40,041 nt of DNA from a virus (taxonomy: Duplodnaviria; Heunggongvirae; Uroviricota; Caudoviricetes), in the IMG/VR virus record IMGVR_UViG_2778261296_000006. One strand, written 5' to 3'. Made by a program: the position numbers and the translations under genes. Numbering within the stretch: position 1 is the first letter of the stretch; each line of letters begins with the position of its first letter. A model generated the notes under the pieces. That model did not search any database. It saw nothing but the letters and a program-made list of their open reading frames with translations, and was not told the DNA's origin. Of this stretch, positions 10,368 to 33,203 are shown in pieces.

Positions 10368-11528
10368 TTAGCGAACCACGTTGATCTGCACATCGGCATA
10401 ATGAACTGCGCCAGCCAGCTTACAGGCCACCTGGATTAACGGTGCTTTGCGCGCTTCGCGGTCGGCCTGCGCCTGTTCGGACAGCGGTTGCGCATACACG
10501 TAATAGCCTTTGGTCAGCGTATCGCCGGAATTCAGCTGTCCGATAGGGCCACCATTCCACACGCCAGCAGCTACCAGACCGTTCGTGACGGACTGATCCA
10601 TGGACTGTTCAACGTTGGAAAGCAGACGGGTAACACCGGCATCAGTCTGCGGAATTTTGGTGGTGCTGGTGTAAAGCAGGTTATAGAGGTTGGTCTGAAC
10701 GTAGTTCTGCAACCAGTCGAGCCCGTGGCGCTCGTCGAAGAAGTCACCGTTCGCCATGACACCCTGTTGCAGGATCGCCGTGTCGTTGGCGTAGTACACG
10801 AACACGTTCGCATTCTTCGTATCCACCGCAGCCGCCTGGCCTACCGTCAACGTTTCGTAGGTTACGCTTGGTTCCTGTTTGAACTTCAGGGTAATGGTGG
10901 TATTGCTGCCGTTGAAATTGACAGTAAACGCACGACCGAAAGCAGAAACCGCTGCGTAAGGGCTGCTGGTGGAATACTGAATAAAGGTACGGGCATACTT
11001 GCCAGCCTTTAATTTCGACGCAACATCGGTCGTCGAAGTCGTGCTGATAATCTCGGCGTCGGCAGAGGTCACACCAAAGATACGGCTAAGGCTGGACGCT
11101 TCAATAAGTTTGGCGACCTCAATCACGTCATCAGCATCAAGCACATCGCCACCAGCGACAACATCATCAGCGACAACCAGCCCATACCAGTTGGTATATT
11201 GCAGGCAGGCATTAACGGCTTGCACGATAGTTTCAGTATCTCCACTCTCGGAAGAACTCAGCGTCTTCGCCCAGCGACCAACATAAACCTGTGTCGGCTT
11301 CGGTGACTGGCTGAAGAAAACCTGCGCTGCTTTATATTCCGGGCTGTCGACACCGAAGTCTTCGCCAATGTCCTCAATGGAAGCATATAGGCGAGTACGT
11401 TCTGTCACCGGAATGACAGTGGAAGAGCCAAGGATTAGCAATGCGCCGAAGTTACGACCAGTAGCCGCTTTCGGCGAGATGATCACATCAACGTTTACAA
11501 CGTTGGATACAGGTAAGCCCTGCGTCAT
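10368..11528 (-). CDS. tail sheath protein (putative)
   Basis: 386-aa ORF upstream of tube, chaperone and tape measure. Positional and size-based. Confidence 0.55.
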
Positions 11529-26402: not shown

Positions 26403-26612
26403 TCACCCCCACGCCTTGCTTTGCCATACCCGGCTCGGGCGAGGCGCGTTATCGCCTTCCGGCAATTGCGCGCTGACGGTCCAGGTGATGTTGTCGCGAT
26501 TCAGGCTGCGCTCTGTCTTTACACCGCGCGCCCGGTATTTCTCCACCAGCTCGTCGGCCTGTTCGGTGGTGCATTCGTGATGGTGGAACCAGGAAAATTT
26601 CATCGCCATCAC
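26403..26612 (-). CDS. hypothetical small protein (nin region)
   Basis: 69-aa ORF, tightly coupled to its neighbours. Confidence 0.3.
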   Translation of the reverse strand: MMAMKFSWFHHHECTTEQADELVEKYRARGVKTERSLNRDNITWTVSAQLPEGDNAPRPSRVWQSKAWG

Positions 26613-27208
26613 CCCGCAAAGCTCATCAGCTGGGCGGCGGCGTTTTCTGCCTCTTCACAACTGCGAAATGATCGGGAGAGTATCCATCGCCACAGAACAT
26701 CGAGCGCGGCTTTGTACAGCTGCTGGAACTCAGTTTCATCCATATTTGCGAATGAGATACTGCGGGGATGTTTGCGGAGGGTGCCGTCAGGCAGCTGAAT
26801 GGCGTCGTAATGGCCGGACTCAATAGTGACCCATGCACGATATGCATCGAATGACTTACAGGCGCAGATGCTACCAGTACGCTTATCGGCGATGCGGTCC
26901 AGATATTGCTCAGCAGCATCCAGGAGTGCTGCTTCACTTCCCGCGAATGAGGCAAGGAACTTGGCATAGCCGGTTACCAGCTTGCGTTCGTTGGAGGAGA
27001 TTGCCCCGCCGGTGGGTTCCCAGTATTCGAAACCGAGATTGAGTAACGCGAAGAAACGACGGTGAAAGGCCGGGTTGCGTACCTGCCGGAACTCAGCCAC
27101 CAGTACGGAGCCGAGTTTGATTTTTGATTGCAGTAAATCACTGGTCTCCGGCGTAGCGGGGATCAGGATTCCTGAGGAATGCTTGATGAGTTGTAGTTCG
27201 TGCGCCAT
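26609..27208 (-). CDS. hypothetical nin-region protein
   Basis: 199-aa ORF in the position occupied by NinB/YbcN-type genes in lambdoid phages. Family not verified. Confidence 0.4.
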   Translation of the reverse strand: MAHELQLIKHSSGILIPATPETSDLLQSKIKLGSVLVAEFRQVRNPAFHRRFFALLNLGFEYWEPTGGAISSNERKLVTGYAKFLASFAGSEAALLDAAEQYLDRIADKRTGSICACKSFDAYRAWVTIESGHYDAIQLPDGTLRKHPRSISFANMDETEFQQLYKAALDVLWRWILSRSFRSCEEAENAAAQLMSFAG

Positions 27209-27242: not shown

Positions 27243-27491
27243 TCAGACCGTTGATTTCATATTATCAGAAGGTGGGGTTACCCGGTAGCCGAGACGGTGA
27301 ATAAACTGCATAAAACCATTAGGAGTAAAGACCTCTTCATCATCCAGCAAAGGCCGCATAGAAACCATGCCATTGACGCGATAAATTAGATGCCTGCCCG
27401 ATGAAGGAAAGCTAAACACCACGCAGCCGTCAGACCTTCTTACAATGTCATACCAGTTGTCTTCTGACGTTTGCAAAGCTGAATCACTCAC
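27243..27491 (-). CDS. hypothetical protein downstream of dinI
   Basis: 82-codon ORF with a GTG start at 27491 preceded by GGGAG. No family recognised. Confidence 0.3.
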   Translation of the reverse strand: MSDSALQTSEDNWYDIVRRSDGCVVFSFPSSGRHLIYRVNGMVSMRPLLDDEEVFTPNGFMQFIHRLGYRVTPPSDNMKSTV

Positions 27492-27608
27492 ATTTATGTT
27501 CTCCCTTCGAGCGACTAACAGACGCGATTAAAGATTGTCGGCAGCAGCATCAGAGGGTTACGCAAATTGCGGTATTCTGAAAAATGCGCGCCAGCCTTAA
27601 GCGCAATT

Positions 27609-27842
27609 CTAATAAAACCAGTCGTCAGCGCTTTCCCAGGTATCCTGGAGGATTGATTCAATTTTCTTTTTATCGTCCTTGTCACCACCAAAAACACTTA
27701 ACCCATCGGCCCCGGCACGGCGGATTGTGAGCCTGCAATTGTCATAGTGATCATTCAGGCGCTTAAGCAGTTCTTTCTCCAGTGCTGGTACTGCGCCTTT
27801 AGGAAGTTCTTTCATGCGATCAATGGTTAATTCAACTTTCAT
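27609..27842 (-). CDS. dinI: DinI-family DNA damage-inducible protein
   Basis: MKVELTIDRMKELPKGAVPALEKELLKRLNDHYDNCRLTIRRAGADGLSVFGGDKDDKKKIESILQDTWESADDWFY aligns end to end with E. coli DinI as I recall it (...ILQETWESADDWF). Confidence 0.8.
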   Translation of the reverse strand: MKVELTIDRMKELPKGAVPALEKELLKRLNDHYDNCRLTIRRAGADGLSVFGGDKDDKKKIESILQDTWESADDWFY

Positions 27843-27860
27843 AATGGCCCCCATTGCATT

Positions 27861-27880
27861 TACTGTGTTTTTATACAGTA
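27861..27880. promoter_or_regulatory. LexA (SOS) box overlapping the dinI promoter
   Basis: TACTGTGTTTTTATACAGTA is a perfect CTGT-N8-ACAG palindrome with TACTGT/ACAGTA arms, about 20 nt upstream of the dinI start. A -10-like TATACT overlaps the box on the minus strand. Confidence 0.65.
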
Positions 27881-27942
27881 TACCTATGCGCGGAAATGAT
27901 CAACGCTTTAAGAGCACAAATTGTTAATTTTCTGTCAGTAGT

Positions 27943-27970
27943 AAAAAAAGAAAACCCGCCGTAGCGGGTT
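27943..27970 (-). terminator. rho-independent terminator (minus strand)
   Basis: AACCCGC-CGTA-GCGGGTT hairpin followed on the minus strand by TTTTCTTTTTTT. Confidence 0.5.
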
Positions 27971-28239: not shown

Positions 28240-28476
28240 TTACGATTTATCCATTCCCAGGGGATTAGGGTGAATTCCACTTACATGCCAGAACGCATGC
28301 TCTCTATTCAACTGATTTCCCTTTGGTATCAGGAAGCCATACGTCCCAGATTTAAAAGTGGCATGAGCGCAGATTAGACTTTCTCCTTCAAAGCTATACT
28401 CAGTCCCTTCAGGGATTAGAGAGTCAGTCTTGATCAGGTGAACAGTTCCGTTGATAGGGATCATGTAATGGTGCAT
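28240..28476 (-). CDS. hypothetical small protein (78 aa) inserted between methyltransferase remnants
   Basis: ATG at 28476 with GAGGAG RBS 8 nt upstream and a TATAAT hexamer further upstream. AT-rich by eye. No family recognised. Confidence 0.4.
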   Translation of the reverse strand: MHHYMIPINGTVHLIKTDSLIPEGTEYSFEGESLICAHATFKSGTYGFLIPKGNQLNREHAFWHVSGIHPNPLGMDKS

Positions 28477-31047: not shown

Positions 31048-31266
31048 TTACTTTGGTAAACCGTCACTTGGGTTTGGATAGAGATCAGGGCGCAGCTCGT
31101 GTGGAGTTACGCCGGTAGCCGCGTAGATTTGAAGGACCCGATCAGCAGGCACCACGCCCTGGTACCGGTTTTTCCAGCGGCTGACCGACATCGGCTTGAT
31201 GCCCAGCATGGTTGCGAGATTTGTTGCAGTGCCAGCGGACTTAATGGCTTTCGTTAACCCGTTCAT
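31048..31266 (-). CDS. Cro / YdaS-like HTH regulator
   Basis: Start at ATG 31266 with GGAGAC RBS. 72 aa, MNGLTKAIKSAGTATNLATMLGIKPMSVSRWKNR... is an HTH-type sequence. Divergent from the repressor gene across the operator region. Confidence 0.6.
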   Translation of the reverse strand: MNGLTKAIKSAGTATNLATMLGIKPMSVSRWKNRYQGVVPADRVLQIYAATGVTPHELRPDLYPNPSDGLPK

Positions 31267-31294
31267 CGTTGTCTCCGATTTGAATACAATCAAA

Positions 31295-31336
31295 TTAAGC
31301 CTGAGACTTAATTTATTGTCAAGCCTGAGGCGAATT
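31295..31336. promoter_or_regulatory. OR-like operator/promoter region (divergent PR/PRM)
   Basis: 17-mer TTAAGCCTGAGACTTAA at 31295-31311 and related GTCAAGCCTGAGG at 31318-31330. A TTGACA hexamer on the minus strand (31322-31317) overlaps the sites and points toward the cro-like gene. Confidence 0.5.
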
Positions 31337-31370
31337 TTCAAGTTTAAGAAAAAGGCTTATTCTTCTAACC

Positions 31371-31757
31371 ATGAAAGAGAAAACCGTACTTAATCCGATA
31401 CTTGTCGAACGCCTTTCAGAGCTGAACGGGCGCGGTATGACCAAATCCGATATGGCCAGGGTTGCTGGGGTAACCCCGCAGTCTGTGAACGGCTGGTTTA
31501 AAAAAGGCGTGATCAGCAAGAAATCAGCTCTCGCTGTCGCTGACGCAGCTGGCGTGTCTGTGCCTTGGTTACTCGGTGAGGATGTCGGCGAGAAGGACGG
31601 ACTTAAGCCGGACGAACAGCGCCTGCTTGAGCTCTACCGCCAGCTGCCAGAAGAAGAGCAACAGAACATGCTCCGCATCTTTTCGATACGTCTTAAGGAA
31701 CTGGATGAGCTGTATGAGAAGTACATGAAGGGGCGGATTCGCTCGCAGGGGGACTGA
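31371..31757 (+). CDS. cI-like prophage repressor (HTH; no S24 peptidase domain)
   Basis: 128 aa. N-terminal HTH (MTKSDMARVAGVTPQSVNGWFKKGVISKKSALAVADAAGVSVPWLLGED), then a short helical C-terminal region. Too short to carry a LexA-like autocleavage domain. Divergent from the cro-like gene. Confidence 0.6.
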   Translation: MKEKTVLNPILVERLSELNGRGMTKSDMARVAGVTPQSVNGWFKKGVISKKSALAVADAAGVSVPWLLGEDVGEKDGLKPDEQRLLELYRQLPEEEQQNMLRIFSIRLKELDELYEKYMKGRIRSQGD

Positions 31758-31842
31758 ATCGCTTTAGGTTTGTCCTGAATTTTTAGTTCCCATGAGACAA
31801 TGATGTCTTTACTGGGGGGTGATTCCGCCATTTATGTTAGAT

Positions 31843-31870
31843 TGAAAAAAACTATCAATTTAATTAATAT
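31843..31870 (+). promoter_or_regulatory. sigma70-like promoter of the immunity-region cargo gene
   Basis: TTGAAA (31843-31848), 16-bp spacer, TAATAT (31865-31870), about 28 nt upstream of the cargo ATG. Confidence 0.45.
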
Positions 31871-31898
31871 TTATCACTACTACACGGGATGTTTTGCA

Positions 31899-33203
31899 AT
31901 GACAGCTGAGATTGTTGTAATAAATAATACTGGAATCGCCCTTGCTGCTGACTCTGCAGTCACCACAGAGCATAATAGATTAGTAAAAATAAATAATAGT
32001 GCGGAAAAACTATTCGAACTATCTAAACACCATCCCGTGGGGATCATGATTTATAATAATGCGACACTGGGTGGCGCACCGTGGGAACTTATAATTAAAT
32101 CCTATAGAAAACAATTGGGGAAAACTAGTTTCCCTACCATTAAAGAATATGTTAATGACTTTGTAAAATTCATCAATGGTAACTCAGACCTTATAACAAA
32201 TGAAATGAGAGAGGCTTGCGTTATAAACCTTGTTGTTGATAACCTCAAAGGTTTGATGAGATACATTAATGATAATAATGTAGTAAACTATTTAACAATG
32301 AACCCCGCCGTTGAACTCGACAATGTTATTTTTCAAAACATAGTTAAGCAAGCCTTTGATTTAGAGATAGAAATCTTAAGGAATAATCTCTTTTTCGAAG
32401 GGTTTGATACAGAAGAGTTTAATGATGCTTTAGCATATATACAAGATTTAATATCGCCATACATTTCATCAATTATTGTTCTTGATAACTGTGAAAATAT
32501 ACAGCAAGAGCTTATGGAAAAAGTCATATTATATTCCACTTGTTTAATTTTCAAAGTCCATGCTAGTCGTACATATTCAGGGATTGTTATAACAGGTTAT
32601 GGAGAGGAAGAATATTACCCTTCCATTTGCACTCTTCATATCTACGGCATTTTTAAAAACAAATTGATGATCCATAATATTAATGATAAATCCCATAATA
32701 AGGTAACCAATATGGGGTTTGTTATACCATTTGCTCAAGAAGATGAAGTAGTAACTTTCATTGATGGGTGCAACCCTAACATCATTAATTTTAACAGAAC
32801 TCTTACAGAGGAAGTTTTTGATCGGCTTAATCATTATGTTTCTAGCAATATTTTCCCTGCAATGAACAATGGAGTACTAGCCAATCACTTCTCCAGTGAA
32901 ATTGAGGAACTCAAAAACGTACTTTTACAAGATCACGATACTAAACTTGAAAGCTATATTGTTAATAACCATACAAATAAAATGATATCGATGTTGCAAT
33001 CACTTGGGAAGGCAGATCTTGCGTATATGGCCGAATCATTAGTGAACATCACTGCATTCAAAAGAAAAGTATCACATGATTATGAAACTGTCGGTGGGCC
33101 TGTTGATGTCGCTGTGATATCAAAAGTTGATGGATTTGTTTGGGTAAATCGTAAACACTACTTCCCTAAAGAGCTAAACTCTAACTACTTTAATCGTCAA
33201 TAA
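31899..33203 (+). CDS. AT-rich cargo protein of unknown function; candidate defence protein with Ntn-hydrolase-like N-terminus
   Basis: 434-aa ORF (MTAEIVVINNTGIALAADSAVTT...), strongly AT-rich versus flanking genes. Lies between the repressor gene and OL/PL with its own promoter and terminator. Start chosen at ATG 31899 because the upstream in-frame extension overlaps the promoter. Confidence 0.5.
   Translation: MTAEIVVINNTGIALAADSAVTTEHNRLVKINNSAEKLFELSKHHPVGIMIYNNATLGGAPWELIIKSYRKQLGKTSFPTIKEYVNDFVKFINGNSDLITNEMREACVINLVVDNLKGLMRYINDNNVVNYLTMNPAVELDNVIFQNIVKQAFDLEIEILRNNLFFEGFDTEEFNDALAYIQDLISPYISSIIVLDNCENIQQELMEKVILYSTCLIFKVHASRTYSGIVITGYGEEEYYPSICTLHIYGIFKNKLMIHNINDKSHNKVTNMGFVIPFAQEDEVVTFIDGCNPNIINFNRTLTEEVFDRLNHYVSSNIFPAMNNGVLANHFSSEIEELKNVLLQDHDTKLESYIVNNHTNKMISMLQSLGKADLAYMAESLVNITAFKRKVSHDYETVGGPVDVAVISKVDGFVWVNRKHYFPKELNSNYFNRQ

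Follow-up and report, generated by a model that had tools for sequence, protein, structure and literature searches.

The prophage described here raises the question of how its repressor, which ends at residue 128 and lacks an S24 autocleavage domain, would be connected to the SOS response of its E. coli host. The window (the whole stretch of DNA analysed, 40,041 nucleotides) encodes head, tail, lysis, Q, nin, O/P, immunity and recE/recT-type genes and looks like a complete prophage. A preliminary description of this DNA had noted a short repressor without a cleavage domain and had proposed that a LexA-controlled locus, including an 82-aa ORF, links this repressor to SOS. The first point held on analysis (128 aa, HTH_3 only, no S24), and the second is supported by homology and synteny with the dinI-gfoA-irsA operons of the Salmonella Gifsy prophages. 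We consider it very probable that a Gifsy-like lambdoid prophage of E. coli senses SOS through this locus, in the form of a LexA-controlled antirepressor operon. The immunity region has the following features.

31371-31757, plus strand: prophage repressor, GfoR-like, 128 aa, with an N-terminal HTH and a helical C-terminal domain
31292-31359, unstranded: operator-like repeats, TTAAGCCTGAGACTTAA and relatives (families D1, I1 and I2), between repressor and cro
31048-31266, minus strand: Cro-like regulator (YdaS/P22 Cro-like), with Pfam matches to YdaS_toxin and P22_Cro, a 72-aa 'transcriptional regulator' in the PGAP annotation

The repressor gene is divergent from the cro-like and cII-like genes, which are followed by O and P, and the repeats between repressor and cro are candidate binding sites for the repressor. 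In Pfam the repressor matched HTH_3 only, and its match to the DicA model was full-length but weak. Peptidase_S24 was not detected in the protein at E-values up to 0.01, and a PDB sequence search returned spurious polyubiquitin matches only. The arrangement resembles that of lambda CI and P22 C2, with an N-terminal HTH, divergent cI/cro and RecA-dependent induction, but those repressors undergo S24 autoproteolysis. Since the window repressor has no S24 domain, RecA would not act on it directly, and SOS would be read here through LexA and an antirepressor gene located outside the immunity region. The features of the operon concerned are listed below in the direction of its transcription.

27943-27970, minus strand: Rho-independent terminator-like hairpin and T-run (7-bp stem with 5 G-C pairs, then TTCTTTTTTT)
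27877-27903, minus strand: putative promoter PdinI, with -35 TTGATC (27903-27898), a 15-nt spacer and -10 TATACT (27882-27877)
27861-27880, unstranded: LexA (SOS) box TACTGTGTTTTTATACAGTA, overlapping the -10 hexamer and the probable transcription start
27609-27842, minus strand: dinI homologue, first gene of the operon, 77 aa, ATG at 27842
27492-27608, minus strand: non-coding linker of 117 nt between dinI and the antirepressor gene
27243-27491, minus strand: GfoA-family antirepressor gene, the putative induction effector, 82 aa, GTG start at 27491
26609-27208, minus strand: irsA/STM1020 homologue (DUF1367), third gene of the operon, 199 aa, Pfam PF07105 (E 9e-93)

The box TACTGTGTTTTTATACAGTA differs from the 20-nt palindromic LexA consensus TACTGTATATATATACAGTA at 3 positions. 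It is the only site in the 40-kb window with at most 3 mismatches to this consensus, and no such site appeared in 100 dinucleotide-preserving shuffles, which bears out the earlier observation of an SOS box at 27861-27880 overlapping the -10 region. The looser pattern CTGT-N8-ACAG carries less weight than the 20-nt match, with two occurrences in the window and two or more matches in 5 of the 100 shuffles. Its other occurrence (32489-32504) was considered as a further SOS site and judged a chance match; it is located within an AT-rich coding region and has 5 mismatches to the 20-mer.

On the minus strand, the terminator hairpin is followed by the -35 hexamer, the 15-nt spacer, the -10 hexamer with the LexA box, a GGGGG Shine-Dalgarno sequence and the ATG at 27842. 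The LexA box and TATACT overlap by 4 nt, the final four bases of the -10 hexamer being bases 1-4 of the box. The assignment of the PdinI hexamers is inferred from the sequence; a consensus promoter scan that required a 16-18 nt spacer found no promoter at this position because the spacer, at 15 nt, is suboptimal. In an alignment of the window, Gifsy-2 and phage mEp237, the TTGA of the -35 hexamer, the TATACT and the whole AGGTATACTGT block were conserved, and the terminator-like stem was also kept in Gifsy-2. The operon is about 3.5 kb away from the repressor gene, past O and P and hence outside the immunity region, and the terminator would shield it from early rightward (O-P) transcription.

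The product of the first gene matched the Pfam DinI model (PF06183) over its full length (model positions 1-63 of 63, E 4e-26, 91.5 bits against a gathering cut-off of 24.2). Residues 1-76 also aligned with positions 1-78 of 81 of the NCBIfam model for chromosomal DinI (NF007893), with a score of 91.4 bits that falls below the equivalog cut-off of 111 bits. By these scores the protein is a prophage paralogue of DinI, distinct from the chromosomal dinI product; its other matches were phrog_189 and the PGAP name 'DinI family protein'. The preliminary description was therefore right about a full-length DinI homologue behind the box, and about a co-oriented 82-aa ORF at 27243-27491, which has a GTG start and a GGGAG Shine-Dalgarno sequence 9 nt upstream. 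For dinI, the ATG at 27842 rather than 27854 is the likely start, based on the GGGGG Shine-Dalgarno sequence and on the same start in the PGAP annotation and in phage mEp237.

To identify the 82-aa ORF and the repressor, GfoA and GfoR of Salmonella Typhimurium ATCC14028 were compared through close relatives and through the ends encoded by recombineering primers (Table S1 of PMC3121763, also the source of the irsA primer). The gfoA primers encode MSNSALQK... and ...RRLGYRVTPPSDI, and the window ORF has MSDSALQT... and ...HRLGYRVTPPSDN / ...HRLGYRVTPPSDNMKSTV. The gfoR primers encode MKEKTHQ... and ...EKYMKGRIRTRED, and the window repressor has MKEKTVL... and ...EKYMKGRIRSQGD. Both window proteins thus differ from the primer-encoded termini by one or two substitutions. 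Among the close relatives, locus L082 contains the gfoA 5' primer sequence without a mismatch, and its Salmonella-type ORF, which begins at a TTG codon, shares 90% identity with the 82-aa ORF of the window. The gfoA start in PMC3121763 is apparently also TTG (printed 'UGG'). An exact search of IMG/VR with the 39-nt gfoA 3' primer gave no match, and the shorter PPSDI end of GfoA is explained by a 1-nt indel relative to L082. The repressor of L042, a locus that holds the exact gfoR 5' primer sequence, agreed with the window repressor at 73% overall, at 57% in the N-terminal HTH half and at 93% in the C-terminal half. From these comparisons, the 82-aa ORF is a homologue of GfoA and the 128-aa repressor a homologue of GfoR. 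The antirepressor may target the repressor at its conserved C-terminal domain, which would explain how one antirepressor type is common to heteroimmune repressors.

The dN/dS ratio of the 82-aa ORF was 0.06-0.09 (five relatives, dS 0.34-0.74), a sign of strong purifying selection and thus of a real gene. The antirepressor family alignment has the invariant blocks WYDIVRRSDG, LIYRVNG, RPLL and RLGYR. The 82-aa protein had no match in Pfam, NCBIfam or PADLOC or in a PDB sequence search, and in PHROGs it matched only families without known function (phrog_340). Its AlphaFold model has four strands and one helix with a moderate pLDDT of 71.5, and Foldseek against the PDB retrieved nothing at E < 1, so no mechanistic detail was drawn from structure. 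Direct BLASTP of the 82-aa protein against GftA of Gifsy-2 gave no significant match. GfoA-like and GftA-like proteins were connected via an intermediate subfamily (BLASTP E 5e-10 and 4e-14), and their profiles aligned across 50 columns (hhalign, E 1.8e-4).

The third gene encodes a DUF1367 protein 84% identical to STM1020 of Gifsy-2. The irsA deletion primer (PMC3121763) encodes MAHELQLIKQS, which is the start of STM1020, and the start of the window protein differs from it by one substitution. Multiple complete E. coli genomes carry an identical copy of the 1.4-kb operon, and 63/5426 carry it in one version or another.

We surveyed 83 loci, made up of the window, Gifsy-2, mEp237 and 80 viral contigs encoding a DUF1367 homologue. 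In 58 loci the ORF directly upstream of DUF1367 belonged to the GfoA/GftA superfamily, and a LexA box was found upstream in 58/58, a count that, like the 20/20 of the repressor pairing below, overstates the statistical support given that the loci are phylogenetically related. Where some other gene was upstream of DUF1367, a LexA box was found in 1/23 loci, before an unlike 64-aa ORF. The dinI gene was present in 28 of the 58 antirepressor loci; in the 30 loci without it, some 155 nt lay between the box and the antirepressor start downstream. With the box in all 58 and dinI in 28, it is the antirepressor gene, and not dinI, that the LexA box consistently accompanies.

The type of antirepressor also corresponded to the type of repressor. 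Among the 20 loci with a repressor homologue inside the 6-kb flank, related as they are, GfoA-type antirepressors occurred with a GfoR-type repressor (15/15) and GftA-type ones (subfamilies B and C) with a GtgR-type repressor (5/5). An alternative repressor type in the repressor-less loci was considered and not adopted, as most of these flanks end in replication or cII/cro genes, short of the place where the repressor is expected.

The biology of such a module is already known. LexA-gated antirepressor induction of Gifsy-type prophages was published in 2011 (Lemire, Figueroa-Bossi and Bossi, PMC3121763), where conservation in Escherichia was also noted, with the dinI-irsA region conserved in Escherichia prophages and gfoR/gtgR homologues in most E. 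coli genomes. In the Gifsy prophages, the LexA box is located downstream of the replication genes and adjoins dinI, always behind a terminator-like palindrome, and dinI opens the LexA-regulated operon (PMC3121763). The antirepressors are small ORFs with a non-canonical start (GfoA in Gifsy-1, GftA in Gifsy-2, GfhA in Gifsy-3), the irsA homologue comes next, and the small ORF alone triggers induction (PMC3121763). Binding and displacement of the repressor have been shown for GfoA/GfoR and GftA/GtgR, and GfoR-GfoA is reported to elute as an apparent A2B2 complex. Antirepressor and repressor specificity in Salmonella is not one-to-one, and GtgR does not respond to GfoA. A single SNP in the -10 hexamer of the PdinI-gfoA promoter abolishes inducibility in the Gifsy-1 prophage of strain D23580, indicating that induction depends heavily on this single promoter.

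As far as sequence can test them, all defining features of the Gifsy module were found at the window locus. It shares with dinI-gfoA(gfhA)-irsA of Gifsy-1 and Gifsy-3 (Salmonella Typhimurium ATCC14028, repressors GfoR and GfhR) the gene order, the terminator, the LexA box over the promoter and the non-canonical start, together with similar antirepressor termini, about 90% identity to a GfoA-type ORF, and a short, non-cleavable repressor that is GfoR-like at both ends. The backbone is also alike (recE/recT, cI / cro-cII-O-P, nin region and Q). It differs from Gifsy-1 in its host, E. coli, in a GTG rather than TTG start, in an antirepressor tail that is 5 residues longer (PPSDNMKSTV vs PPSDI), in a dinI allele with about 70% DNA identity to Gifsy dinI, and in the DNA-binding domain of the repressor, so that immunity is probably different. 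The GenBank record of Gifsy-2 has the terminator, TACTGTGTTTATATACAGTG, dinI (STM1019), a 73-aa GTG-started ORF and STM1020. This architecture (dinI-gftA-irsA) is identical to that of the window, with 83% DNA identity in the linker and 79% in irsA, whereas GftA is only remotely related to the 82-aa protein and GtgR (GftR) is about 27% identical to the window repressor.

Two further systems were compared by description. Tum of coliphage 186, and the split tum/dinI of PSP3 and Fels-2, likewise represent a LexA-controlled antirepressor that is linked to a DinI-like sequence, binds the repressor and so keeps it from the operator (PMC3121763). In 186, however, a single protein of 146 aa combines the antirepressor with the DinI-like part, in the opposite order, and the phage is P2-like with another repressor family. 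Rem, encoded by the Qin prophage of E. coli K-12, is a small prophage protein that relieves DicA-type repression and was found by iterated searches from GfoA (bioRxiv 10.1101/2023.04.14.536235); the window repressor matches the DicA model over its full length. Qin differs in being a cryptic prophage, and no LexA control is reported for Rem (bioRxiv 10.1101/2023.04.14.536235).

In the proposed mechanism, LexA control, A2B2 binding and repressor release are carried over from the published Gifsy experiments, and the antirepressor and repressor of the window are taken to behave like GfoA and GfoR. In a lysogen, host LexA bound to the box over the -10 hexamer would keep PdinI repressed. Upon DNA damage, activated RecA would promote self-cleavage of LexA, and dinI, the 82-aa gene and irsA (DUF1367) would be transcribed. 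The 82-aa antirepressor would then bind the dimeric 128-aa GfoR-like repressor and take it off the operators between repressor and cro, upon which the early promoters would fire and lytic growth would follow. The 82-aa protein, rather than DinI, is likely the active component, because induction of Gifsy-1 and Gifsy-3 is not significantly changed by non-polar deletion of dinI (nor by deletion of irsA; PMC3121763) and because 30 of the 58 loci have no dinI. DinI would be a common yet dispensable passenger that probably tempers RecA activity.

Three other explanations were weighed against this antirepressor module. A merely coincidental LexA-like palindrome in AT-rich intergenic DNA seems to us next to negligible as an explanation. 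The recurrence of CTGT-N8-ACAG in a coding region of the window and in some shuffles speaks for it, but the 20-mer with at most 3 mismatches never appeared in the shuffles, and the box is kept at the equivalent position in every related antirepressor locus while the surroundings diverge. The box could instead serve dinI alone, as a lysogenic-conversion gene that tunes the SOS response of the host, with the 82-aa ORF an unrelated nin-region gene and induction proceeding by another route. DinI is a bona fide SOS protein with copies in many prophages, a weak terminator-like hairpin follows dinI (27605-27587), and the 82-aa protein is without a Pfam, NCBIfam or PDB match. Against this, the termini of the ORF agree with those of GfoA and the ORF itself matches others of the GfoA type, box and ORF are retained without dinI in more than half of the antirepressor loci (30/58), the hairpin is not kept in two related loci (L079 and L034), and in Gifsy the dinI deletions leave induction intact while the small ORF alone triggers it. 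We thus regard a box that serves only dinI as highly unlikely.

The module may also be present and no longer functional, through decay of the promoter or of the pairing (as in Gifsy-1 of D23580), or with an antirepressor that fails to recognise this repressor allele and acts only in trans on other prophages. One -10 SNP suffices to silence the orthologous promoter, the specificity in Salmonella is not one-to-one, and one locus (L057) pairs a repressor 99% identical to that of the window with an antirepressor only 56% identical to the window's. However, TATACT, the -35 TTGA and the box show no damage and are shared with the functional Gifsy-2, the 82-aa ORF is intact and under purifying selection, and the operon recurs in identical form in multiple E. 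coli genomes. In its C-terminal domain the repressor is of the GfoR type, always found alongside this antirepressor subfamily, and the complement of head, tail, lysis, Q, O/P and recET-type genes in the window is complete. A decayed or mismatched module therefore appears quite improbable, and a working antirepressor operon remains the preferred explanation.

The linker between dinI and the antirepressor gene contains the weak terminator-like hairpin (27605-27587) and the GGGAG Shine-Dalgarno sequence (27505-27501). Across the dinI-containing loci its DNA identity was 76-89%, with GfoA- and GftA-type antirepressors alike, and that of dinI 67-97%. Loci without dinI have a leader that is unlike the linker and common to several antirepressor subfamilies. 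On the simplest reading, the conserved linker and leader are mosaic joints that permit cassette exchange. A structured RNA in the linker was rejected for now, given no Rfam match at two thresholds, no extra stability of the RNA fold relative to shuffled sequence (z = +0.59) and the lack of conservation of the hairpin. A small ORF spanning the linker in another frame was also rejected, as its stop is not kept in Gifsy-2. A speculative reading, which we consider doubtful, is that the linker and the nearly universal GTG/TTG start form a conserved dosage-limiting device that sets the SOS level for commitment to induction, with the flanks as recombination joints that exchange antirepressor alleles as cassettes. 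Such a device could work by partial termination or by translational control between dinI and the antirepressor gene, in which case dinI would be made at low SOS and the antirepressor at high SOS only.

The practical value of the locus concerns an annotation gap. Pfam and NCBIfam hold no model for GfoA or GftA, and all the source names read for the 82-aa protein and its close relatives were 'hypothetical', 'uncharacterized' or 'bacteriophage protein'; predictions of induction based on S24 only would therefore misjudge such E. coli prophages. The comparative counts given here may help to build an antirepressor model, and the pairing of antirepressors with repressors could help to predict the co-induction of co-resident prophages. 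The exact 82-aa protein was found on at least 1000 contigs. Phage records with a homologue of the 82-aa protein largely coincided with those holding a homologue of the repressor.

An ORF of the GfoA/GftA superfamily lies directly upstream of the DUF1367 gene in 58 related viral loci. In 30 of these (L019 and L039-L070 among them), dinI is absent and nothing separates the LexA box from the antirepressor gene, whose start lies some 155-190 nt further downstream. These loci have a different conserved leader, common to antirepressor subfamilies A and B, two sequence groups within the superfamily, and the same SOS switch is therefore carried on two alternative "chassis". The dinI-containing chassis has a conserved spacer of its own:

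27492-27608, minus strand: non-coding linker from dinI to the antirepressor gene (11353-11463 in the related locus L002; also found in the other dinI-containing loci)

Linker identity was 76-89% among the dinI-containing loci, a conservation equal to or higher than that of the flanking genes, and the same linker is common to loci whose antirepressor alleles look unrelated. No Rfam match was obtained for it and its predicted fold was not unusually stable. Either the linker marks a mosaic recombination joint, or it acts in cis as a regulatory element that has gone unrecognised.

The repressor of L057, a related locus without dinI, is 99% identical to that of the window (31371-31757; 95 residues fetched), and its antirepressor is just 56% identical to the window protein (27243-27491). 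Repressors with differing HTH domains have a near-identical C-terminal domain (93% between the related locus L042 and the window). Together, these sequence comparisons suggest that the C-terminal domain is what the antirepressors recognise, and that the cross-induction of heteroimmune prophages seen in Salmonella could also occur through them in E. coli. A further antirepressor family may occupy the same slot in L020, where a LexA box (TACTGTTTATATGTACAGTT, about 426 nt upstream of the DUF1367 gene) is followed by a GTG-started 64-aa ORF, beginning MSIEVAEAIDTVKEGG..., for which BLASTP showed no relation to GfoA/GftA.

At least 1000 contigs, distributed across Enterobacteriaceae, carry the exact 82-aa protein (27243-27491, minus strand). 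The source names read for it and its close relatives were all "hypothetical", "uncharacterized" or "bacteriophage protein", and neither Pfam nor NCBIfam has a GfoA or GftA model; thus, the function published in 2011 has yet to reach genome annotation.

Three other features of the window lie outside the SOS operon:

31800-33203, plus strand: 467-aa ORF, phrog_5990, a family of unknown function
32487-32506: second CTGT-N8-ACAG motif, AACTGTGAAAATATACAGCA, differing from the 20-nt LexA consensus at 5 positions
28240-28476, minus strand: 78-aa ORF, full-length match to phrog_30079, a family of unknown function

The 467-aa ORF follows the repressor gene after 43 nt in the same orientation, has a GC content of 0.32-0.33 (about 0.5 in the surroundings), and had no match in Pfam, PADLOC or, by sequence, PDB. 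It fills the slot that rexAB occupies in lambda, and thus may encode an exclusion or defence function expressed in the lysogen. The second CTGT-N8-ACAG motif falls within this AT-rich ORF and is probably a chance match. The 78-aa ORF, located between replication gene P and the terminator preceding the SOS operon, was also found in mEp237 and several related loci.
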